From the UHGV virus genome UHGV-0179428: a stretch of 64,000 nt of DNA; one strand, 5' to 3'. A model generated the notes under the pieces. The model made no database searches, was not told the DNA's origin, and saw only the letters and a list, made by a program, of their open reading frames with translations. Below, in pieces: positions 5,713 through 59,091 of this stretch. Every line of letters begins with the position of its first letter. Position 1 is the first letter of the stretch. The translations under genes were made by a program, and so were the position numbers. This stretch comes from a virus.

Positions 5713-7353
5713 TTATTCGATGTGGTGCGCCAACATTGGCGACGCGGCTAAGTTTAACGTATCTGTTGGTGTGCGACGTATCCAACGAATCACTAGCGGA
5801 GCGTCCAGTGGTACGCGGTAGTCGATAACCTTTTTATCCAACCACTCATCTACGCTATAGGTGTAAACTTTACCCCCGACGTGGATTTCGAAGTGTGTTG
5901 GTTCAGGTGGTTCAGACTCATTACGACGGTCGTACAACGGATAAATCGGTTCGTACAACAGCTTCAACCATTCTGCCTTAGAGGCCACTTTGTTACTGAC
6001 GTCGATTTCAGAATAATTGACGTTGGAGTATTTAAATTCCGCCCATACGTTTTCCCCATACTTCATACCGTCTGGGAGGTATTCCAGAATGAAGTTCGAG
6101 TTCAGTTCGTTACCCGGGTTTACAAGCGTAATAGCGAATGACTGAGACTGAATAAACGCACGGAATTTACTGTCTACTTTACTGATATCGACTTGAACAT
6201 TAAGGCGTTGTTTAACACCCATCAATAACGGATCGAATGTCGTGCCCGTGGTGTAGTTAACGTGTGCGGTTGCATCGTAAACTTTACCGCGTGTCAGGTT
6301 ATACAGCAAGAAATCCAGACGATAACCGCGTGTGGCATCCAACCATCTCGGTACAACGAAAAGTTTCATGCTGTAGGCACCGTCGACCTGCTCTGTTACC
6401 GCCGTATAGTTTTTCACAATGGTGTCACCTACGACATCGGTACCCCCGTAAGTTTCACCTCTGGATAACTTATAGCTTAGTACGCATGGTAGCGTGTTGC
6501 CTGAGTTAGAAGCGATGTAGAACGTGTCGTGTGAACCTGCGTTACGTAGGCCGTTGAATTTCACACGAGCCTGGTCGATAGGTAGACGTTTTGTGCCATC
6601 GCTGTAAACAACATCACACCAAAGCGGTATAGACTCGATTGGCATGTTGATCGGGAGTGTCAGTGTGGTTCCGTCGTTGTCTACCAAGAACGGTGACACT
6701 AACTTAATACCCAACACCGTGCGTGCTGGCGTTTCTTGCGGCATTACCAGGTTCGTTTTGATAATGTGTGCGTGGCCGATTTGTACCACGTTACCGACGT
6801 CGGAGTAAACAGCGAACATACATTCTTCGCCGTTCTCGACCTCAGCTAAGCAAGCACCAGGTAACGTTTGTTTAACGACACGCTCAGCACCTTCGACAGA
6901 AATCGTCTGGACCGGTAAGTAAGTGTATTTCAATTTACCGTCTTTGTAGTAGCCTGAGAGTATTTCCGCACTGTCGTCAACTTTACTGCCTCGGAAAATG
7001 CGCACCCCGTCCACATCCGGTCCTTCAAAGGTGAGTGCGTTATCTAACACCATTGTTGCCGGGAGCTTCGTAGAATCCACGTAGACGCGATATTTATCGC
7101 TACGCAGTGGGTAGTGTCCGTTCAGACGACCGTCTTGATTAGCCACCCCTACACCGCCCCACGGTTCGGTTTCCCACGACGGTTTGGCGTAGTTAACGCT
7201 TATGACGATATCGAAACCGGAGGTGATATCGTTAACGATCAGATCTTTCGGGTTCGGTACGTATCCGGTTGGGCGTTCCGGCGCATAGAGTTCTTCAGGA
7301 CGCCATACACGGAACCCGCGATCCTTATTAATAATGTCGGTTGTTAAGGCCAT
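5713..7353 (-). CDS. hypothetical protein, probable virion component (546 aa)
   Basis: Long ORF in structural block, co-oriented with terminase. Confidence 0.55.
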   Translation of the reverse strand: MALTTDIINKDRGFRVWRPEELYAPERPTGYVPNPKDLIVNDITSGFDIVISVNYAKPSWETEPWGGVGVANQDGRLNGHYPLRSDKYRVYVDSTKLPATMVLDNALTFEGPDVDGVRIFRGSKVDDSAEILSGYYKDGKLKYTYLPVQTISVEGAERVVKQTLPGACLAEVENGEECMFAVYSDVGNVVQIGHAHIIKTNLVMPQETPARTVLGIKLVSPFLVDNDGTTLTLPINMPIESIPLWCDVVYSDGTKRLPIDQARVKFNGLRNAGSHDTFYIASNSGNTLPCVLSYKLSRGETYGGTDVVGDTIVKNYTAVTEQVDGAYSMKLFVVPRWLDATRGYRLDFLLYNLTRGKVYDATAHVNYTTGTTFDPLLMGVKQRLNVQVDISKVDSKFRAFIQSQSFAITLVNPGNELNSNFILEYLPDGMKYGENVWAEFKYSNVNYSEIDVSNKVASKAEWLKLLYEPIYPLYDRRNESEPPEPTHFEIHVGGKVYTYSVDEWLDKKVIDYRVPLDAPLVIRWIRRTPTDTLNLAASPMLAHHIE

Positions 7354-7355
7354 GA

Positions 7356-9872
7356 TTAACCCTTGATTTTCAGATACTGGTTCAGCTGAACTTCACCATT
7401 CAGATACCGCTCGTTAACGCGATCCAAAAACGCGAACCCGAGTTCGTTAACTTCCACGGTTTGGTATTTCACATGCGGATGGAGCTTGACAAACGCTTTA
7501 TCGTAACCGATGTACGCGGGGTCGAACGGAAGCAGGTCTTTATACCGCTCCATAATCTCATCCAACTGTGTTGTTGAAATACGATAATCTGGATCGTCTT
7601 CCACGAGGGTGAGAACACCCTGTAAGTAGTCCCACAGGATTTTATTCAGCGTAGGTGAATAAAGGTGATACAGGTGCGGTAAAGGCACCGGGTTCTGTGG
7701 AGGCGGTGTCGGGAACCAGTTAGTCATGTAATTTTCTACACGACTATCCAGATCACGCGCCACGTCCCTGAGCGCATACGTGTTCCCCGTTACCAGCGTA
7801 CGCAACGGTATTGTAGGGTCGTCGACAGAGTAGGGATAACCATCATCAACAATTTTGACACCTACTGTGTTGTCCTCGCGGAACACTACCTCGTCGCGTA
7901 ATAGCAAGGAACCGCCAGCAACGACACGAATAACTTTGTCGTCACGACAATCAAATTGGTTGTTATTTGATAACAGCCCACTCGAGACGAAACCGTGTTT
8001 CGGAATACGAAGTTCGCCGGTGACCCCACGACAACGCACCGCGATGTGGTTTTCATCGGAATCACTCATCCACGCTTTACAGACTACAACGATTTCTGGC
8101 CAAATGACATGATAATCGATACCGTGTACCAGAGGGTGCCCGTTTAACCACACTTCAACGGTTTCCATCGGAATCCAGAGTGTACGTTGATTACCTTCTT
8201 GGTTTCGGGCCAGAATAGGAATACGAATCTCCCCTTCTCTGACCGACACATCGATTTCGAAATACAGATGGCGATCGTCGTAAATCACCGTAGGATGACG
8301 ACGAGTACGGTCCACAGTCCAGGTAATGCTATTACCTTCACGGGTGTAATCCGTCCCTTCCACTGCCTTCAGATATTCGTCTCGTGGAATGTCATCGATA
8401 ACCTTACGTAACCACAAGTTAACGTTTTGACCTTCCTGAATCTCGAAATCGGCAGCATTATCAACGATGGTTACTGTTTCGGCTTTATCGCCTTCAATCG
8501 CCTCGATAATTCTGGTGTTGGGGTTGCGTGCTTGGTATACGTCGTAACCGCGGTTTTGATGTGCCTCTAACAGCAAACCATCGCCGTCATACTCGTACAC
8601 AGTCGAGTTGGTTGCCAATAACGCAGGTAAGGTAGCGCGGTACCCTCCTTCCGTTAACGTAAGACGCTGAGGGGTATCGGCGGCATAACGGCTTACGGCG
8701 TTGTAACCGTAGGCATCAGTACACAAATCGCGCGTAATATTCTCAAGCTTAGCTGCTGCCAATCGGTTAAAAGCAGCTTGTTCCAGATTAGCAGCCTGCC
8801 ACTCTGTTACGTTCGCATTCGCACCGATCATCGCGTCGATAATCAGGTCATCTGATAATCGGTATAAATCGTGTATGTGCGATGAGTTAAACAACGGCGT
8901 AATATCCAGATAGTCATCGCGGATAATCAGCCTGATGATCAGATCGTCCAGGTCGGTGATTGAGCCACTAAAAACGTTGCGATATTTTGCAATGCGTTCA
9001 GTCGGGATTGATAAATCGTTCCATGTTAGCTGACGTAGCGCCTGGTGGCGGTGACGATGGTAATAACGCCCCCGGCCTTTCCAATAAAGCTGGATCTCCG
9101 CATCGTTGTTAAAAATCCAGATGCCATCTTTTTTCGGAATATGGAGCAAGTATTTTCGTTTGTTATCCAGTTTGGACATAAACGTTTGTAAGTCGCCGCA
9201 GCGAAACTCTACAACACGACGAACGCGACCATCGACGCGGATGTCGATATCGTCCCACGTTTTAATATCCGCAGGCTTTGGAGAATCAACCAGTTCTCCG
9301 TTTAACCAGAACTCAACGTACCCTTTGTTTTGTTGTTTCAGGTAATTAAACCGATCGATGACCTTTTGGACCTGTTCACGATTCGCCGGTGAATAAAACT
9401 CGACGGTCGTTGGGTTGATGTACGGTGCGTTTTCACCCCCGTTGTAACCAGGATAAATTCGCAGGTAACAAGGATCGTTATCCAACCAGGCATACCGATC
9501 GGATTGCGGAATAGCCATGTAAACCATTCCCGCGCTGTTACGGTAGAAATAAACGTATTCGGAAGGAATTGTCGTTCCGTTTTCGTTATAGACCTGAATC
9601 CAGGCGCTAAAGCCGTTTACGCAAGTGGAGAGTTTCTTCCAACGGTTTAGGGGGATAGCAAGATTCCCCCAGTTTACGTGAAGTTTATCTACCGCATAGG
9701 CGTGCCACCACGAATTCTCTTTCGGTAAAGCGACCGGAATCCGACCGTGTTTGAAAAAGCCGATCGCCCCGGTCTTGGGTGAAAGACGGAAGGGTGCGAT
9801 GTTGAGCACCCCGTCAAGATATGGACGCTGCCACGCTTTTTGGATGGCGTGGGCGACCAGCCAGTTCTCCAT
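7356..9872 (-). CDS. hypothetical large protein, probable virion component (838 aa)
   Basis: Long ORF tightly packed with neighbours. Confidence 0.55.
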   Translation of the reverse strand: MENWLVAHAIQKAWQRPYLDGVLNIAPFRLSPKTGAIGFFKHGRIPVALPKENSWWHAYAVDKLHVNWGNLAIPLNRWKKLSTCVNGFSAWIQVYNENGTTIPSEYVYFYRNSAGMVYMAIPQSDRYAWLDNDPCYLRIYPGYNGGENAPYINPTTVEFYSPANREQVQKVIDRFNYLKQQNKGYVEFWLNGELVDSPKPADIKTWDDIDIRVDGRVRRVVEFRCGDLQTFMSKLDNKRKYLLHIPKKDGIWIFNNDAEIQLYWKGRGRYYHRHRHQALRQLTWNDLSIPTERIAKYRNVFSGSITDLDDLIIRLIIRDDYLDITPLFNSSHIHDLYRLSDDLIIDAMIGANANVTEWQAANLEQAAFNRLAAAKLENITRDLCTDAYGYNAVSRYAADTPQRLTLTEGGYRATLPALLATNSTVYEYDGDGLLLEAHQNRGYDVYQARNPNTRIIEAIEGDKAETVTIVDNAADFEIQEGQNVNLWLRKVIDDIPRDEYLKAVEGTDYTREGNSITWTVDRTRRHPTVIYDDRHLYFEIDVSVREGEIRIPILARNQEGNQRTLWIPMETVEVWLNGHPLVHGIDYHVIWPEIVVVCKAWMSDSDENHIAVRCRGVTGELRIPKHGFVSSGLLSNNNQFDCRDDKVIRVVAGGSLLLRDEVVFREDNTVGVKIVDDGYPYSVDDPTIPLRTLVTGNTYALRDVARDLDSRVENYMTNWFPTPPPQNPVPLPHLYHLYSPTLNKILWDYLQGVLTLVEDDPDYRISTTQLDEIMERYKDLLPFDPAYIGYDKAFVKLHPHVKYQTVEVNELGFAFLDRVNERYLNGEVQLNQYLKIKG

Positions 9873-40118: not shown

Positions 40119-40415
40119 TTATTGAAAATCTCGTTTGGCCTTGCTGATGATTTGAGATATTCGGCTTGGCGACACTCCGTGTATTTCGGCCAATTTCTTG
40201 TTACTTAGGCCACCCAATTTACCAACAAGAATATTCAATACACGTAAGTCTTTTAACGTTGCCGAAATCTTTTCTAAGATTTCGATATCACCTTGATCAA
40301 ACTTACCTTTGGTCTGCAATGCTATCCCAGCACGCTCGGTAATAGTTTTTAGCTCAGCTAATCGACTAATGCCGAAAGAAGTTAACTCCGCGTACGATTT
40401 CTCATTAATCATCAT
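40119..40415 (-). CDS. small HTH protein resembling sigma-70 region 4
   Basis: LSNKKLAEIHGVSPSRISQIISKAKRDF parallels the region 4.2 helix-turn-helix (xTLxEIGxxxGVSRERIRQIExKAL). Confidence 0.45.
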   Translation of the reverse strand: MMINEKSYAELTSFGISRLAELKTITERAGIALQTKGKFDQGDIEILEKISATLKDLRVLNILVGKLGGLSNKKLAEIHGVSPSRISQIISKAKRDFQ

Positions 40416-40422
40416 GTACCCC

Positions 40423-41457
40423 TTAGACAGCTATGGGAGCTTTAATTGTGTCGTGCGATTGATATCCAACCAATTCGAAGTCTTCGTATTTGTAATCGAA
40501 GATAGAATCAGGTTTACGTTTGATAACCAGCTTAGGTAGCGGGTAAGGTTCGCGTGTAAGTTGAAGTTTTGCCTGCTCCAGATGGTTAGAGTAAAGATGA
40601 ACATCTACGCCACTATAAACCAACTCGTCTGGAACCATATTGAGTTGTTGAGCAATCATGTGAGTTAACAACGCGTAAGAAGCGACGTTAAACGGTGCGC
40701 CAAGTAGGTAATCGTTGCTCCGCATCATGTAAAAACATGAAAGCTTACGGCGTGGAATGCCCTCACGATCTAAAGTTTCATGAAGTCGTTCTTCATCATC
40801 AATATCTTCGTGATTAATAAGTGGTGCGTTCGCAAATTTTTCCGGTTCGTTTACTTCGTACCAATCCAGTCGCTCAAGCAGTGACATTTCCGTTGTGTAG
40901 AATTGGAAATAGTTGTGGCATGGGTTAAGTGCCATATCGTCTAGGTCTGCTACATTCCAGGCACTAACGATAATACGGCGGGAGTCAGGGTCTTCACGAA
41001 GTTGCTGGATAACTTTACTGATCTGGTCATGTGCTTTTTCATAAACCAAATACGTCGTACCATCTTCCTTCATATTCCCAATATACTTGTAACCCCGCTG
41101 CATTAGTTGTTGTGTACGTCTTACGTCATGACACTCCACAACTTTACAGTCGCGCCATTCACGCCACTGGTGCCCGTAAACCGGACCTAAATCCCCTTCG
41201 TTGTTTGCCCATTCGTTCCAAATTTTTACCCCATTCTCTTGCAGGTACTTCACGTTAGTGTCACCGTTTAAGAACCACAGCAGTTCATGAATGATACTTT
41301 TCAGGTGAACCTTTTTCGTAGTAACTAATGGGAAACCTTCTTTCAGATCAAAACGTAGTTGACGGCCAAATACAGAAAGTGTCCCTACGCCTGTACGGTC
41401 TTTCTTGACAACACCGTTATCCAGAATGTCTTGCATTAACGCTAAATACTGTTTCAT
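40423..41457 (-). CDS. thyA: thymidylate synthase family protein with two insertions
   Basis: N-terminus near-identical in pattern to ThyA (MKQYLxLMQ...DRTGTGTLSxFG...GFPLVTTKK...HELLWFLxGDTN); catalytic PCH present; C-terminus ...IKAPIAV; ~80 extra residues in two inserts. Confidence 0.8.
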
Positions 41458-41774
41458 TTGTTATTATTCCCCATTCGTTTCGTTAAAATATCTAAATTGC
41501 GCTGCGCTTGTTCAGGACTAAAAATAATGTTTTCCTGGCTATACGTTACATGAAAATGTTTTTTGTTAACAATGTCAACCTTAAGGCCACGAACTTCGAA
41601 TTGCCGTTTAGCCTCTTCAACCTTTTTTGGTGAGATTCTAAGAAGACCTGGAAATAGTTCGTCTGCGGGAACGTAGTATTTGATTTCCTTAGTCTCGGGA
41701 ATTAACTCGATTCTATCTAAACTGACGCTTATAATCTCGTCAATCTTTTTCTTGATATTGTCGTTCGCAACCAT
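41454..41774 (-). CDS. hypothetical protein (106 aa)
   Basis: ATGA overlap with thyA-like gene. Confidence 0.45.
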
Positions 41775-42082
41775 CAGATTTTGTCCCTTTCGAGTTCAGT
41801 TAAAATTTCAAACAGGTCTGCGTTGGATTGGAGTACGACTTCACTGCCTTCTGCTACAACGGTAATTGTTGGTTTCTTACCACGTAGCAAGAACTCCCAA
41901 CGCATGGTTCTTACGTGGCTGTCGAGTAACTGCTTTAATTTGTGGTTAACTTCGACTTCCAATTTGCCCAGTAACTGTGGTGTAATAGCTTCGCCTGAGT
42001 TTTTGTTATAAAGTGTACGCACTAAAGAACGTAAAGAATAACCAATGCACTGCGAAATTGCCCAACCCGAATAGTTTTCCAT
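41774..42082 (-). CDS. hypothetical protein (102 aa)
   Basis: ORF only. Confidence 0.45.
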   Translation of the reverse strand: MENYSGWAISQCIGYSLRSLVRTLYNKNSGEAITPQLLGKLEVEVNHKLKQLLDSHVRTMRWEFLLRGKKPTITVVAEGSEVVLQSNADLFEILTELERDKI

Positions 42083-42083
42083 G

Positions 42084-42629
42084 TTAATCCTTCAAAATGT
42101 CTTTAAGCTTTAGTTTTGTATAGAACGGAGAACTACTTAGTTCTTCTGTCCAACTTATACGTCCGTTCTGTAGAACCCGGTCGAAGATTAGGCCGTTCAT
42201 CTTTACAATTCTAGCCAACTGATAAAAGAGCGTCGTGAGGTGTAGTCGGCGTTCCATTTGTGCGCGTGCGGTACAACTGCGTACCGCTTTGATAGCAAGT
42301 ACCGCTTCTGGCATCAACGTCACCGCGATTGTCTCAGGATGTTCGTTTTTCCATTTCTTAATGGCTAGTAGTCTGTGTAACGATTTTTCAAGGGGACGTA
42401 AATCCCCGTTATTCATCACGTAAACCAAAGCAGCAATATCCCACAAGGCAATACCTACTGCTTTAGCAACAAACAACCCGTCGTGTGCTGTCGTGGATTC
42501 ACAGACTTTGCCAATACTTCCATAAACACGTGCGGTCCATACGTCTGTCTGTTCGCCGGGTTTTATACCCGCGTTATCCAGAAAGTGTTTAAACGTATTA
42601 ACGTGATCAGTTAACTGTATTTGTTTCAT
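42084..42629 (-). CDS. hypothetical protein (181 aa)
   Basis: ORF only. Confidence 0.5.
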   Translation of the reverse strand: MKQIQLTDHVNTFKHFLDNAGIKPGEQTDVWTARVYGSIGKVCESTTAHDGLFVAKAVGIALWDIAALVYVMNNGDLRPLEKSLHRLLAIKKWKNEHPETIAVTLMPEAVLAIKAVRSCTARAQMERRLHLTTLFYQLARIVKMNGLIFDRVLQNGRISWTEELSSSPFYTKLKLKDILKD

Positions 42630-42643
42630 TTCCGATACCCGAT

Positions 42644-43108
42644 TTAGTCACGAGACTTTATTTTAAGGTACGCAACCGCAGCTCCCACGATTGCAATCCC
42701 GGCACCCCAACCTATCTTTTCTATTACACCCATATCGTCCCATCTTTTCTCTTCGTTACGTCGTTTGGCCTCTTCTGCCCGTTCTCTCCACATCGCTTCG
42801 CGTTCCAGACAGCTGGGATTTATTTCCTCTTCACAACGTCGTTTCCGTTCTTCTTCCCCAATCAGTTCTTCTAAATAGAGCCTCGTTTCTTCCACAGCTT
42901 GTTCATAGACGTCTATGCGATCGGGAAGAACTCTCCTGTGAGCGGCTTTGTTGCGAACGGAAGCAATCATGTGGAGTTTCCGTTCGTATTTTGGTTCGAG
43001 AAGATGAGCTATGCTTTTGGTCTTCCCATGAAGCCCATGACCGGTACCGCCGAGTTTTTCCACAAGTTCTTCTACAGAAATTGCAAGATCGAGAATATAT
43101 CCACGCAT
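42644..43108 (-). CDS. HEPN-like (Rx4H) protein with C-terminal transmembrane anchor (154 aa, start adjusted)
   Basis: SVRNKAAHRR fits the HEPN Rx4-6H motif; C-terminal IGWGAGIAIVGAAVAYL hydrophobic helix; start moved to ATG 43108 with GGAGAAA RBS. Confidence 0.4.
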   Translation of the reverse strand: MRGYILDLAISVEELVEKLGGTGHGLHGKTKSIAHLLEPKYERKLHMIASVRNKAAHRRVLPDRIDVYEQAVEETRLYLEELIGEEERKRRCEEEINPSCLEREAMWRERAEEAKRRNEEKRWDDMGVIEKIGWGAGIAIVGAAVAYLKIKSRD

Positions 43109-43168
43109 AATTGTTTCTCCGCTTAAACGCAGTCTTGGGAGACATAAGTCTGTTCCCAACTGTAAAAA

Positions 43169-43537
43169 TCATTTCAACAAAACAAGATGAATTTGGTATT
43201 CGTCATCCGCAGGAGAAGAATAATCGCCAGTTACAGGTAACGTTATATCTCCCAGTATAGCGTGGAAGGGTAATCCACGAGCAGCCTCAACTGTTCGTAC
43301 AAGCGGAAAACCTGTTCTTTTAATCCAATTGTAATCAACAAACATAACGCCGCCAGGACTTCCCGAACCTTCCCACACACGAATTTCCACAGTCTTTCCC
43401 GAAAAGTTGGCAAGTACAGTGCGCAGCCCTAATTGCACATAACGGGGGAAGGGTACTTCAATAACTTGTTTTGGTAAAACAAATTCAGGGAATTTAAAAC
43501 CGAAACCTTTGGGTGTACTAAAAAACTGAGCTTGCAT
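43169..43537 (-). CDS. hypothetical protein (122 aa)
   Basis: RBS AAAGGAGAA; terminator upstream. Confidence 0.5.
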   Translation of the reverse strand: MQAQFFSTPKGFGFKFPEFVLPKQVIEVPFPRYVQLGLRTVLANFSGKTVEIRVWEGSGSPGGVMFVDYNWIKRTGFPLVRTVEAARGLPFHAILGDITLPVTGDYSSPADDEYQIHLVLLK

Positions 43538-43559: not shown

Positions 43560-43600
43560 AAATGAAAATACCCTACTCCTAGTCAGGAGTAGGGTAGGTG
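43560..43600. terminator. Intrinsic terminator
   Basis: Stem CCCTACTCC/GGAGTAGGG (43569-43597), T-tract on the minus strand. Confidence 0.7.
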
Positions 43601-56908: not shown

Positions 56909-57577
56909 CTATCTAAGAATATTTTTAGCGAAAAAAGGATCGACTGTAAACTCCTTCACCTGTGAGTCATAACCCGAATGTATCTGATCGCTACTGAGCA
57001 AATACTGGTCTAAATCGTGCGGAAGAATCCAAGAATCACCTTGCTTAAAAATACCATAATCTGTTGTTCCAGAGGAAAAAACGATTTCCTCTGGAGACGA
57101 ATAGATGTGGCGTAAGGCAAGATCGGACGGCTTTAACACGATTAATCTAACGGGATGTTGACTGACTGCCTCTTTAATAAACTGTTCACGATTAAACCAA
57201 ATTATTTTTTCGGGGTAAGTTTCGAATTCAGCCCATGTCCGCGTGATAACTAATTTGGAAATCTTTCTCAATTCTTCAGAATGCTCTGCGTAGCCGATAC
57301 ACTCCTTGCGCACTTCATGATTTTCTACCGATGCTGTGAATTTTTGGAATAGGTGTTGTTGGAAAAAGCCGTTCTCCGGGATATCACAACCCGCGTTGTA
57401 TAGTGCAATGATCTCCCACAACAACGAAAGAGAAAACACAAATGCTAACTTTTCCACAACTTCCCAATCTTCGGAGTAAGGGGCTTTAAAGCCCCAATAC
57501 TGCCGTGCGTTATACATAAAGTGAGTTTGTAAAAACCGAGGGGCTTTTGACAAGACCTCACTATAAACGATCAGCAT
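56909..57577 (-). CDS. hypothetical protein (222 aa)
   Basis: ORF only. Confidence 0.5.
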   Translation of the reverse strand: MLIVYSEVLSKAPRFLQTHFMYNARQYWGFKAPYSEDWEVVEKLAFVFSLSLLWEIIALYNAGCDIPENGFFQQHLFQKFTASVENHEVRKECIGYAEHSEELRKISKLVITRTWAEFETYPEKIIWFNREQFIKEAVSQHPVRLIVLKPSDLALRHIYSSPEEIVFSSGTTDYGIFKQGDSWILPHDLDQYLLSSDQIHSGYDSQVKEFTVDPFFAKNILR

Positions 57578-59091
57578 TCAAGCTCCTTATCCGTCAATAT
57601 TCGTTTGTTTGAATAATAGCCACACCACAAGCCATGATATTTTTCCCCAATATAAACCAACGCGTACTCGATATACTGCCGTTCTGGACGCCGTACCGCC
57701 ACGTAGAAACGCCCTTCTGGTTCTTTCATACGGTTGATTTCTGTACGCGTCGGTATGTCGATACCTCGAGTAAGGATGGTTTTAACCTTGTTTTTGCTAC
57801 CAGGGATATGGATGGTTACGTCAAAACCTTTATCTACATTACGATAAAAGTCTTTCTTCGGCTTACCTTTCTCATCGTAAAGCAGGTCAGTAATGTCGTT
57901 CATTACGACTGAGTTTTTCCCCTCCATGGCATCACGTAACCAACCTGCAAGCTCATCACGAATCGTAATGCAGCGATAAGACAATAACGCGGGACGAAGA
58001 ATTCGTGTAATCGAAAGATCTTCAAACATCCACAGGTTTTTGTCTTCGCTAAAATGCATCCGATCGACAGGAATACCGTTAGCTGCGGCTTCTGCGAACT
58101 TCTTACGTTTTACGAATAAGTTAAAAACAACGGCGATGGGATCAAACTGACGTAAACGGGGCACCCCTTCCCACGCTTTCGCAGAGTGGGTATTTACCAA
58201 CTCGTATACGTTGTTCCATGGTTCTTTGGTAAACATTACGCAGAATTGTGCATCTGGAATGTACTTACCAACGAAGACGATATCGTCCTTCTGTTTTGCA
58301 TGGTTCCCACCGAACATGTAATAAAGTTTATTACCGTTAACTGTAACAGTGGGATGGGGTTCGTTCACCATCGGGTAACAGAACTTCGTAACACAGATAT
58401 CGGGAAAAGCGGACAAATTGACACCCTCACCAACAACTTCTGGTTGCTGATCTTCCTCAGGCATCTCGTCTTTTGACCAATACGGCGTATAGTCTAGCCC
58501 CTCCCCTCGACCAGAGATACTTGAACCCTTCCGTGCTAACTCGTCGGCACGCTCATTTCCATAACGCCCAGAATGACCTTTAATTTTAAGGACACGAACG
58601 CCTTTCCCTTCTTTCTTTAACCGCTGTTTAACCTCCCACATCCGTTGGATTAATTCCAAGTTCGCAATAGGCGTACCGTCCGCACGACGCCAACCGCGCG
58701 CAGCCCAACCATCAATCCAATCGTTATACGTGTTGACAACGTAAGATGCGTCGATGTAGATAACATAGTTTTTGGCAACGAAAGGTGCGTGTTCGAAGAC
58801 GGTCAGGAAAGCCACGAGTTCCGCAACATCAGAGTGTGACATTTTTGGTACAGGCACAACACCGTCGATAAACTCCACGGTTTCTGGTAAAGGTGGAAGT
58901 TTTTCATCCTTGTTTATCTGGCGGTATCCTGACGTCGTAATCCCCTCAGGAATAGAAGGATGGCGGTAAACCCGACCATCCTCAATCGTTTCACGATTAA
59001 ATAAGTATCCATGAATCCCCGCTCCTGTACCGAGCGGGGAGGTCAAATGGCTACCATCCGTGTAAATTACTGCAACATCAACGTTCTTCAT
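57571..59091 (-). CDS. RNase H domain fused to an uncharacterised C-terminal domain (506 aa)
   Basis: N-terminal ~190 aa carries RNase H1 catalytic motifs in order: VIYTDGS, AELVAF, IDASY, KGHSG, GNERADELA; C-terminal ~320 aa unrecognised. Confidence 0.7.
   Translation of the reverse strand: MKNVDVAVIYTDGSHLTSPLGTGAGIHGYLFNRETIEDGRVYRHPSIPEGITTSGYRQINKDEKLPPLPETVEFIDGVVPVPKMSHSDVAELVAFLTVFEHAPFVAKNYVIYIDASYVVNTYNDWIDGWAARGWRRADGTPIANLELIQRMWEVKQRLKKEGKGVRVLKIKGHSGRYGNERADELARKGSSISGRGEGLDYTPYWSKDEMPEEDQQPEVVGEGVNLSAFPDICVTKFCYPMVNEPHPTVTVNGNKLYYMFGGNHAKQKDDIVFVGKYIPDAQFCVMFTKEPWNNVYELVNTHSAKAWEGVPRLRQFDPIAVVFNLFVKRKKFAEAAANGIPVDRMHFSEDKNLWMFEDLSITRILRPALLSYRCITIRDELAGWLRDAMEGKNSVVMNDITDLLYDEKGKPKKDFYRNVDKGFDVTIHIPGSKNKVKTILTRGIDIPTRTEINRMKEPEGRFYVAVRRPERQYIEYALVYIGEKYHGLWCGYYSNKRILTDKELEC

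Follow-up and report, generated by a model that had tools for sequence, protein, structure and literature searches.

A gene in the window (the whole 64,000-nucleotide stretch of UHGV virus genome UHGV-0179428 analysed here) encodes a small protein that is very probably composed of a HEPN-fold domain and a membrane anchor. The best overall explanation, with a probability of about 0.6, is a dimeric, membrane-tethered HEPN RNase carried as an accessory gene and used in inter-phage competition. HEPN RNases are central effectors of CRISPR, toxin-antitoxin and abortive-infection systems. The protein defines a compact, tail-anchored HEPN form, in which a spacer joins a domain of ~90 residues to a single TM helix. 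This form is widespread; Pfam, NCBIfam, PHROGs and PADLOC contain no model of its family, and none of its members has been characterised.

The mechanical open reading frame of the gene starts at a TTG (42644..43159, 171 aa), and the ATG at 43108 gives a product of 154 aa. The initial annotation had moved the start to this ATG with its GGAGAAA ribosome-binding site, and this correction is upheld by the reading of that site, in which GGAG (43120-43117) lies 8 nt 5' of the ATG, and by the homologues, since all 57 close homologues (136-191 aa) begin at the same Met with a common MR.. start. The gene is read from the minus strand, a point left unmentioned in the initial annotation. Over orthologue pairs, dN/dS of the N-terminal domain was 0.04-0.34, mostly 0.15-0.34, and the 30 C-terminal codons hold too few sites, with one indel, for such an estimate. 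The features of the protein and its locus are collected in Table 1.

Table 1. Positions in the window of the tail-anchored HEPN-like gene, the segments of its product and the neighbouring elements.
Feature	Position	Strand	Basis or remark
Tail-anchored HEPN-like CDS, 154 aa	42644..43108	minus	ORF list and sequence; stop codon 42644-42646
RBS GGAGAAA of the HEPN-like gene	43114..43120	minus	minus-strand read ...taagcGGAGAAAcaattATG
Minimal N-terminal HEPN (DUF4145-like) domain (predicted), residues 1 to ~96, helices 2-18, 25-32, 39-57, 65-94	42821..43108	minus	AlphaFold2
E13 codon, invariant upstream acidic residue	43070..43072	minus	invariant in A1, A3, A4, A6
Family-specific glycine-rich loop and short helix, G20-G21-T-G23-H-G25-L-H27-G-K29-T-K-S32	43013..43051	minus	A4 conservation
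Rx4H (R-N-x3-H) catalytic-type motif, codons R52-N53-K54-A55-A56-H57	42938..42955	minus	end of helix 3; invariance
Highly charged helical linker, residues ~97-127	42728..42820	minus	composition; orthologue indels
C-terminal TM tail anchor I132-L148 (IGWGAGIAIVGAAVAYL, residues 132-148), then 6-residue tail KIKSRD	42665..42715	minus	hydropathy; family conservation
Upstream 122-aa gene, function unassigned	43169..43537	minus	synteny in L001, L004, L019
Downstream 181-aa gene, N-terminal half of SPN3US gp038 homologue	42084..42629	minus	
Terminator-like hairpin, 12-bp stem and T-run	43569..43596	minus	terminator scan and sequence read

Profile comparison linked the protein to HEPN families both directly and through its relatives. 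The window protein itself matched DUF4145 (PF13643) weakly (E=0.096, 13.2 bits), below the gathering cut-off of 23.1 bits; 12 of the 22 members of its clade matched DUF4145 (best E=0.013) and 7 of the 22 matched Abi_2, and these two HEPN families were the only Pfam families matched by more than four clade members. A profile search gave 793 hits, with 335 relatives (335 clusters at 50% identity) at E<=1e-3. Among 61 sampled relatives, 14 matched DUF4145 (best E=5.5e-7), P0059 reaching 23.1 bits, and other sampled intermediates matched HEPN_Apea, RiboL-PSP-HEPN and Swt1-HEPN. The family is a sister or divergent subfamily of DUF4145 and not a formal member of it.

The fold was predicted in two AlphaFold2 models, with pLDDT values of 84-92 and 95-98 over residues 1-90, as an all-alpha, up-down helical bundle superposable on solved HEPN domains; at ~90 residues the domain is short compared with the ~110-130 residues of HEPN domains. 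R52 to H57 lie at the C-terminal end of helix 39-57, before the loop 58-64 that leads to helix 65-94, and it is at the end of helix-3 that the Rx4-6H motif was placed by Anantharaman et al. in 2013 (PMC3710099). Two structure-comparison programs run on the two models both put HEPN proteins first, and the top 17 Foldseek matches were nearly all HEPN proteins, every E-value being >=0.086. The initial annotation had proposed a profile HMM search and a structure prediction as checks on its HEPN reading, and both came out in favour of that reading, the former through the clade-wide DUF4145 and Abi_2 matches and the sampled relatives, the latter through the canonical position of the Arg and His.

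Several searches gave little, and they bear on an alternative in which there is no HEPN domain: R-x4-H would be a chance motif, and the protein, small, helical and tail-anchored with a coiled coil, would have some unrelated structural or membrane function. PDB sequences were searched with profiles three times, and nothing significant was returned; the CRISPR-associated HEPN protein 8y75 and HepS appeared at E ~1, and in the 8y75 alignment RNSVAH stands in register with the family RNKaaH, which is suggestive. The BFVD viral structures yielded nothing below E=0.29, PHROGs and NCBIfam no meaningful match, and PADLOC-DB v2 no match for the window protein and stray matches (E>=0.008) for three of the 22 clade members. 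The sub-threshold Pfam match of the window protein and the proneness of helical bundles to promiscuous structural matches also favour a protein without a HEPN domain, as does the chance rate of the motif: bare Rx4-6H occurs 73 times in the 20,160 aa of the window's long ORF segments, or 0.56 times per 154 aa, so that the bare motif in this protein is at chance level. The stricter R[NDH]x3H is found at 0.053 per 154 aa in the same segments. A protein without a HEPN domain is nonetheless highly improbable in view of the HEPN families matched by the clade and, in some diversity, by the intermediates, of the first rank given to HEPN proteins by both structure-comparison programs, of the canonical position of the motif, and of the conservation described below.

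E13, R52, N53 and H57 are invariant although pairwise identity in the family drops to ~20%. Alignments A1, A4 and A6 show no variation at R52, N53 and H57, A4 comprising 36 sequences (the window protein, P0053 and 34 distant single-TM relatives), and RNxxxH is present in 143 of 147 representative relatives. The motif and the hydrophobic C-terminus thus exceed chance because they are conserved, the three motif residues being invariant and the C-terminal helix being found in 36 of the 36 sequences of A4. The protein also has two features of the HEPN superfamily (Pfam clan CL0291), namely a polar residue (N53) immediately after R52 and a conserved acidic residue upstream (E13, in predicted helix 2-18); a second conserved acidic residue upstream of Rx4-6H is common in HEPN families (PMC3710099). 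The claim that SVRNKAAHRR (residues 50-59) fits the HEPN Rx4-6H signature within a helical segment is therefore borne out by conservation and by its place at the end of helix 39-57. A decoy role, which had also been considered, is disfavoured because the catalytic-type residues are invariant. Between E13 and the motif lies a loop with the family consensus G[AG]xG[RK]GLHEKxxS, in which G23 is invariant and G20, G25, H27 and S32 nearly so (A4), and which may have a phosphate- or RNA-binding role.

The hydrophobic C-terminal helix, originally read as a membrane anchor, stands as such on family-wide conservation and on relatives carrying an Excalibur domain. Its hydrophobicity is moderate (best 19-mer Kyte-Doolittle 1.66, residues 132-150), and a like helix is present in 22 close homologues. 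Hydrophobic (TM) segments were found in 104 of the 143 motif-bearing relatives, downstream of the motif in 102 of the 104 and upstream in 2; these TM-bearing relatives include 49 single tail-anchored and 29 multi-TM proteins. In Acinetobacter relatives, the domain order is HEPN-TM-Excalibur with Excalibur extracellular, so the HEPN domain is placed in the cytoplasm, homology indicating an N-in topology for the window protein. Between domain and anchor, 29 of the 49 residues in positions 80-128 are charged, and indels in the linker region give orthologues total lengths of 136-191 aa, the linkers of distant relatives ranging from ~0 to ~60 aa; on account of this variation in length the linker is taken to act as a spacer.

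In the resulting picture, a minimal HEPN domain of the DUF4145-like branch (residues 1 to ~95) faces the cytoplasm, and a charged helical spacer of variable length leads to the single C-terminal TM helix that fixes the protein in the inner membrane, with six residues outside. The domain would most likely be a metal-independent RNase, as suggested by the four invariant residues and the placement of the motif; a dimer would bring together two R-N-x3-H motifs, and RNA would be cut near the inner face of the membrane. The balance tips slightly towards an active RNase. Separately, three relatives (P0060, P0078 and P0059) carry tandem HEPN domains and a TM helix, an arrangement that lends indirect support to a dimeric active site.

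The nature of the TM helix admits a different, non-nucleolytic reading, in which the HEPN fold oligomerises face-to-back as in Csx28 and, with the TM helices, forms a pore or perturbs the membrane; a phage could use such an effector for lysis timing or inhibition, to slow host metabolism in persistence, or for superinfection exclusion. Csx28 combines a TM helix and a divergent HEPN fold in an octameric pore that depolarises the membrane, and it shows that a protein with a TM helix and a HEPN fold need not be a nuclease (bioRxiv 10.1101/2021.11.02.466367). Gly and Ala abound in the helix of the window protein and show small-xxx-small spacing (G133, G135, G137, G142, A143, A144), which favours helix-helix packing; the bacterial relatives lack an antitoxin partner; and lysis inhibition has been proposed for persistent phages of the type to which this one belongs (bioRxiv 10.1101/2024.12.31.630880). 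A pore-forming effector is nevertheless quite unlikely. The motif of Csx28 is divergent, with its Arg buried in a salt bridge off the interface (bioRxiv 10.1101/2021.11.02.466367), whereas R-N-x3-H and the Glu are invariant here across hundreds of sequences; the domain order is opposite, with the TM helix C-terminal here and N-terminal in Csx28; the tandem-HEPN relatives suggest a face-to-face pseudo-dimer; and a linker of ~0 to 60 aa is hard to square with a defined pore architecture.

The family occurs in Acinetobacter, Pseudomonas, Planctomycetota and prophages. In bacteria its members stand alone amid housekeeping genes, outside defence islands and without an antitoxin partner. This setting makes a toxin or defence role less likely and hints at an activity that is regulated or benign. 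In Acinetobacter the gene comes immediately after one for a cold-shock (CSD) RNA chaperone, and in other viral contigs relatives adjoin a lipoprotein gene within tail-gene clusters. A frameshifted pseudogene of the family was found in Pseudomonas danubii, at a single locus recognised from an out-of-frame DNA pattern with a 65-nt gap (the in-frame degenerate pattern being GGNYTNCAYGARAAR-N66-MGNAAYAARNNNNNNCAY), and one of the 61 sampled relatives matched DZR.

The carrier phage is a Seoul-like (SPN3US-related), nucleus-forming, persistent jumbo phage of enterobacteria, found as circular "plasmids" of ~222 kb, with E. coli 98232 and Enterobacter ludwigii among the carriers, and in many isolate assemblies; the same persistent lifestyle has been described for Seoul-like phages (bioRxiv 10.1101/2024.12.31.630880). 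The HEPN-like gene is shown to be accessory and to occupy a variable, fast-evolving slot of three genes, with an omega of 0.36 against 0.04-0.15 for the flanks. The 122-aa gene always adjoins it in the phage clade and also evolves fast, at 59% identity compared with 82-95% in the flanks and with an omega of 0.22; it had no Pfam, PHROG or NCBIfam match and is unrelated to SPN3US gp040. The 181-aa gene, the most divergent of the block, starts 14 nt past the HEPN stop, with a 4-nt overlap with the HEPN gene in the L019 clade. Recent import of the block by recombination was rejected, synonymous divergence being high across the whole region, so that the excess of the block lies in dN. The hairpin separates a conserved 219-aa gene from the variable block and is probably where the transcription unit of the HEPN gene has its 5' limit. 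The initial annotation had put the gene in an early-gene block, a putative assignment; a scan for sigma-70-like promoters gave 7 matches, fewer than the shuffled expectation of 11.9, jumbo-phage promoters lying outside the models of the scan. SPN3US gp039, at the syntenic position, was considered as a diverged homologue and rejected as an unrelated gene. When 50,697 phage records were searched at nucleotide and protein level, neither the region nor the protein nor a prophage relative retrieved a homologue of the HEPN-like gene, which is thus absent from cultured phages at BLAST sensitivity.

The same HEPN evidence would equally serve a membrane-tethered RNase acting in the phage's own programme and not in defence. 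Such an enzyme would break down those host mRNAs that are translated at the membrane (for envelope proteins, transporters or receptors, for example) or tune RNA levels, and would thereby help the phage to take over the cell or hold the infection in a persistent, non-lethal state, while tethering would spare phage mRNAs as they exit the phage nucleus. Taking Ire1 as the analogue, Anantharaman et al. proposed that membrane-associated HEPN proteins process RNA at the membrane's inner face (PMC3710099); the stand-alone chromosomal homologues and the CSD neighbour point to a housekeeping or regulatory RNA function; and the gene is co-oriented with nucleotide-metabolism genes such as ThyA. A role in the phage's own programme is nonetheless unlikely: the gene is missing from SPN3US and every other isolated relative searched, so it is dispensable for the basic infection cycle, and its faster evolution than its neighbours, together with moron-like positions in other viral contigs, is more typical of conflict genes.

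Of the possible roles for a dimeric, membrane-tethered RNase, inter-phage competition seems the most likely, the carrier cell being shielded from superinfecting phages, yet this defence role can be put forward only tentatively, at less than even odds. Phage-borne defences consisting of a single HEPN protein are represented by HepS (PMC13043305) and by Tha (PMC11087260). A more specific and decidedly improbable version takes the tether as a matter of design, with an RNase patrolling the inner membrane of the persistently infected cell and destroying RNA that appears there. Conceivable targets of such a patrol are the early transcripts from the EPI vesicle of a superinfecting nucleus-forming phage, this vesicle being derived from the inner membrane and extruding transcripts (bioRxiv 10.1101/2023.09.20.558163), and the entering genomes of ssRNA phages; the mRNAs of the resident phage, exported from a centrally placed protein nucleus, would be spared. 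If true, membrane patrolling would amount to a new, location-based discrimination between self and non-self among competing phages and may aid the persistence of Seoul-like phages.

The carrier is in any case unusual for a HEPN-like gene, being a nucleus-forming jumbo phage of a recently described persistent type in which the gene sits in a fast-evolving accessory slot. If active, the protein would give bacteria and phages an equivalent of Ire1 and other membrane-tethered HEPN RNases, and would be a candidate superinfection-immunity or persistence factor in jumbo phages considered for therapy. Its small size makes it a handy model for the control of HEPN activity by localisation.

Among known systems, the DUF4145 branch resembles the HEPN-like protein in its helix layout and in a catalytic Arg/His motif closing the third helix, and has an experimentally characterised member in RAZR / PD-T7-4 (PMC13017515). 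In contrast to DUF4145/RAZR, the HEPN-like protein is without a zinc finger, is anchored in the membrane and has its own G-x-x-G-x-G-L-H-E-K loop, and its gene is carried by a lytic or persistent jumbo phage and not by a bacterial defence locus. The HepT toxins of HEPN-MNT systems (5yep, 6m6u, 7ae2) differ in being soluble, and an MNT-type toxin-antitoxin pair was rejected here, as no gene for an MNT nucleotidyltransferase antitoxin lies beside the HEPN-like gene or its bacterial relatives and the flanking genes showed no NTase domain. HepS of Gifsy-1 (PMC13043305) and Tha of S. aureus prophages (PMC11087260) are, by contrast, soluble, larger and triggered by tail proteins, and share no sequence similarity with the HEPN-like protein beyond the motif. 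Csx28 (type VI-B2) is alike in being a small protein with one TM helix and a four-helix HEPN-like fold that acts at the membrane in phage-host conflict, but it depends on Cas13b and is encoded beside cas13b, whereas there is no CRISPR context here.

The tethering of a HEPN RNase by a single TM helix for action on membrane-proximal RNA recalls the KEN domain of Ire1 and RNase L, and C6orf70 (PMC3710099), although these proteins are eukaryotic, combine a circularly permuted HEPN with kinase and lumenal sensor domains, and are homologous at the level of the superfamily only. A precedent in overall design is offered by the membrane-associated HEPN proteins predicted by Anantharaman et al., in which a cytoplasmic HEPN domain is combined with TM segments; one of their membrane groups partly coincides with DUF4145, in another TM helices come after an N-terminal HEPN, and the arrangements described include an N-terminal TM with WP, a TM before an Abi2/Swt1 HEPN, and HEPN-2TM-Zn-ribbon (PMC3710099). 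The window protein departs from the first group (N-terminal single TM and WP before HEPN) in its C-terminal TM helix and lack of WP, and from the third (HEPN, TM pair, C-terminal Zn ribbon) in having one TM helix with six residues after it, although the third group may be a cousin, given the 29 multi-TM relatives and the single DZR match. Membrane-associated HEPN proteins were thus already predicted in 2013 (PMC3710099), and what is new here is the minimal N-terminal HEPN domain with a single C-terminal tail anchor.

The 154-aa product begins at the ATG proposed in the initial annotation, behind a GGAGAAA ribosome-binding site (RBS). The longest mechanical ORF starts at a TTG (42644..43159); a GGAG (43120-43117) lies 8 nt 5' of the ATG at 43108, and the corresponding methionine is the first residue in 57/57 close homologues. 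The gene is real, since it is conserved and its first 84 codons show dN/dS values of 0.04-0.34 (mostly 0.15-0.34) in orthologue pairs. Both features first noticed in the product are present: SVRNKAAHRR, with the Rx4H signature, occupies residues 50-59 (S50-V-R52-N-K-A-A-H57-R-R), and the hydrophobic C-terminal helix, I132-GWGAGIAIVGAAVAY-L148, precedes KIKSRD in a C-terminal TM plan shared with many relatives. Taken alone, the motif and the hydrophobic segment are weak evidence: the window's long ORFs contain Rx4-6H 0.56 times and R[NDH]x3H 0.053 times per 154 aa, and the segment peaks at only 1.66 (Kyte-Doolittle).

The proposal of a HEPN domain is supported by structure prediction and by profile HMMs. 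AlphaFold2 models built with the clade alignment (pLDDT 84-92 over residues 1-90) and with a deeper alignment (mean pLDDT 94.3) both contain helices at 2-18, 25-32, 39-57 and 65-94/96, with a spacer helix and a terminal helix after them. The R-N-x3-H motif forms the C-terminal end of helix 3, ahead of the loop to helix 4, which is the position of Rx4-6H in HEPN domains; the protein also has the polar residue after the arginine and the upstream acidic residue noted for HEPN (PMC3710099). Independently, Foldseek searches with the second model returned HepT toxins, 1wwp, 2hsb, Csm6 and YutE within the top 17 matches, with probabilities up to 0.98 and a best E value of only 0.086. At the sequence level, the window protein matches a single family, DUF4145, below threshold (E=0.096; 13.2 bits against a gathering score of 23.1 bits; residues 11-59, model positions 21-72). 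The families most often matched across the 22 clade members are DUF4145 (12/22, best E=0.013) and Abi_2 (7/22), both classed as HEPN by Anantharaman et al. 2013 (PMC3710099). A profile built from the first 88 residues picked up 335 of 1.84 billion representative proteins at E<=1e-3. Among 61 profile-found relatives, 14 matched DUF4145 (best E=5.5e-7), six HEPN_Apea, two RiboL-PSP-HEPN and two Swt1-HEPN; one relative, P0059, scores exactly the DUF4145 gathering cut-off. PHROGs, PADLOC and NCBIfam hold no model for the HEPN-TM family.

Given how frequent Rx4-6H is in the window, the motif might be regarded as a chance occurrence; this is opposed by the fact that E13, R52, N53 and H57 stay invariant when the window protein is aligned to distant relatives (20-40% identity), which also speaks against the decoy initially considered. 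G23 is invariant in one such alignment (A4) and nearly invariant in another (A6). Near-invariance holds for L16 and G25 in both alignments, and for G20, H27, S32, A49 and K54 in A4. The family shows a segment rich in glycine, G-[AG]-x-G-[RK]-G-L-H-E-K-x-x-S, which is not known as a standard DUF4145 feature and could provide a second histidine or form a loop that binds phosphate close to the active site.

The membrane anchor is likewise a family trait. RNxxxH is present in 143 of 147 representative relatives, within the first 70 residues in 133 of these. At least one hydrophobic 19-mer occurs in 104/143, with all hydrophobic segments downstream of the motif in 102 of the 104; 49/143 are single-TM and tail-anchored like the window protein, 29/143 multi-TM, and 8/143 contain the motif twice. 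In A4, the 34 distant relatives, which were selected for a single C-terminal TM, match the plan of the two phage proteins, with the TM helix at the extreme C-terminus and a linker of almost none to ~60 residues. A second search gave 793 relatives, many of them a chromosomal Acinetobacter protein in which HEPN and TM are followed by a C-terminal Excalibur calcium-binding domain, an extracellular module. This domain order fixes the predicted topology as N-in and places the HEPN domain in the cytoplasm. Relatives with tandem HEPN domains plus TM (P0060, P0078, P0059) suggest that a HEPN pair may be the working unit, as in other HEPN RNases. Together, these data show a conserved tail-anchored protein whose predicted cytoplasmic HEPN-fold domain retains catalytic-type residues.

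In bacterial chromosomes the relatives stand alone among housekeeping neighbours, a context that argues against a simple toxin, and no conserved antitoxin-like partner was found among those examined. The Acinetobacter gene has a gene for a cold-shock-domain protein directly upstream; the arrangement, which always includes a 42-aa ORF, is located between nuo/upp genes and a LysR regulator, and the only annotation of the product is "excalibur calcium-binding domain-containing protein". In the Pseudomonas danubii pseudogene, the N-terminal (MRGQILDISTEVESLL..GLHEK) and C-terminal (..IASVRNKAVHE..TM) parts are in different frames. Positions in viral sequences are moron-like: in L006 and L007 the HEPN-TM gene is followed by a gene for a small lipoprotein, whose signal peptide reads ...LLAGC, and the pair lies inside the tail module, just upstream of the genes for host-specificity protein J and tail assembly protein I; in the viral contig L008 it lies inside a prophage with an integrase.

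Coordinates of the features described and records of related sequences
Feature	Sequence	Position	Strand	Description
Target gene	window	42644..43108	minus	from ATG, 154 aa
Glycine-rich segment	window	43013-43051		residues 20-32, between helices 1 and 2
181-aa ORF	window	42084-42629	minus	half of gp038 homologue
102-aa ORF	window	41774-42082	minus	other part, adjacent
Terminator-like hairpin	window	43569-43596	minus	strong; 12-bp stem with 6 GC pairs and a 4-nt loop, followed by TTTTCATTTT (T-run)
ThyA	window	40423-41457	minus	344 aa
98-aa ORF	window	40119-40415	minus	between ThyA and 148-aa gene
506-aa protein	window	57571-59091	minus	RNase H domain at residues 81-190
"Plasmid"	NZ_CP173450.1 (L001)			circular, 221,873 bp, E. 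coli 98232 (urine, Egypt)
"Plasmid"	NZ_CP134650.1			222,441 bp, Enterobacter ludwigii
HEPN-TM, lipoprotein genes	L006, Pseudomonas-type viral contig	424-1966
HEPN-TM, lipoprotein genes	L007, Pseudomonas-type viral contig	5989-8212
HEPN-TM-Excalibur gene	L010-L014, Acinetobacter	6001-6678		225 aa, conserved chromosomal, 896 contigs
HEPN-TM pseudogene	L021, Pseudomonas danubii chromosome	6185-6678	minus	frameshifted

A nucleotide search of the window against 50,697 phage records gave no match; SPN3US, phiEaH2 and related jumbo phages encode proteins that are 60% identical to its 2388-aa protein over the full length. The close homologues of the target are encoded on 221-226 kb contigs in numerous assemblies of Salmonella, Shigella and E. 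coli, and the region is deposited at 90.6% and 90.7% identity in two "plasmids". These deposits and contigs fit the Seoul-like persistent virulent jumbo phages, nucleus-forming Chimalliviridae that all encode chimallin (bioRxiv 10.1101/2024.12.31.630880); no chimallin was identified within the 64,000-nt window. The gene order in the clade is 433 aa, 280 aa, 219 aa, [122 aa], [HEPN-TM], [181 aa], 102 aa, ThyA, brackets marking the variable positions. SPN3US has the same flanks, with the 122-aa and HEPN-TM positions filled by the unrelated gp040 and gp039, and the homologue of its gp038 (289 aa, phrog_10269) is divided in this clade into the 181-aa and 102-aa ORFs. Sequencing error was ruled out as the cause of this split, which is kept in every clade member examined. 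The terminator-like hairpin lies directly 3' of the 219-aa gene stop and 5' of the 122-aa gene RBS (AAGGAG).

Between the window and the more distant clade member L019, the flanks are 82-95% identical and the 122-aa, HEPN and 181-aa proteins 59%, 53% and 41%. Synonymous divergence is high throughout the region, so the excess lies in dN: omega is 0.22 for the 122-aa gene and 0.36 for the HEPN gene against 0.04-0.15 for the flanks. The 181-aa part of the split gene evolves faster than any other gene in the region (dN 0.57, the highest; pS is saturated, so no omega is given), whereas the 102-aa part retains 94% identity. The HEPN gene is an accessory, fast-evolving gene of a persistent jumbo phage, for which, as a conflict-prone gene, a HEPN fold is unsurprising. 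The thymidylate synthase ThyA matches the Pfam model (266 positions) over its whole length and therefore carries ~80 residues of insertions, common to SPN3US ThyA (gene 1017 nt). The 98-aa ORF has a C-terminal helix-turn-helix with weak HTH_3 and sigma-70 region 4 matches; as ThyA and the 148-aa gene are only ~30 nt apart in L001 and L019, this putative DNA-binding gene is an insertion/deletion difference between close relatives.

It may be envisaged that the window protein dimerises and cuts RNA near the membrane. By analogy with the phage-borne HEPN proteins HepS (PMC13043305) and Tha (PMC11087260), its role would most likely lie in competition between phages. A rival view, following an idea of PMC3710099, is an RNase of the phage programme acting on membrane-proximal host RNAs. 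The genome of nucleus-forming phages is enclosed first by an inner-membrane-derived vesicle and later by a protein nucleus (bioRxiv 10.1101/2023.09.20.558163), and together with the membrane tether this invites the testable idea of location-based RNA targeting.

Compared with known systems, the window protein is predicted to work like a DUF4145-type HEPN RNase, although it falls below the formal Pfam threshold, and it fits none of the three architectures that were reported for membrane-associated HEPN proteins in 2013. A non-nucleolytic pore like Csx28 is the other rival; domain order, motif and context set the window protein apart from Csx28. The most fitting class for the window protein is a tail-anchored minimal HEPN, from a family without a characterised member, and it appears to be the first of its kind in a nucleus-forming jumbo phage.
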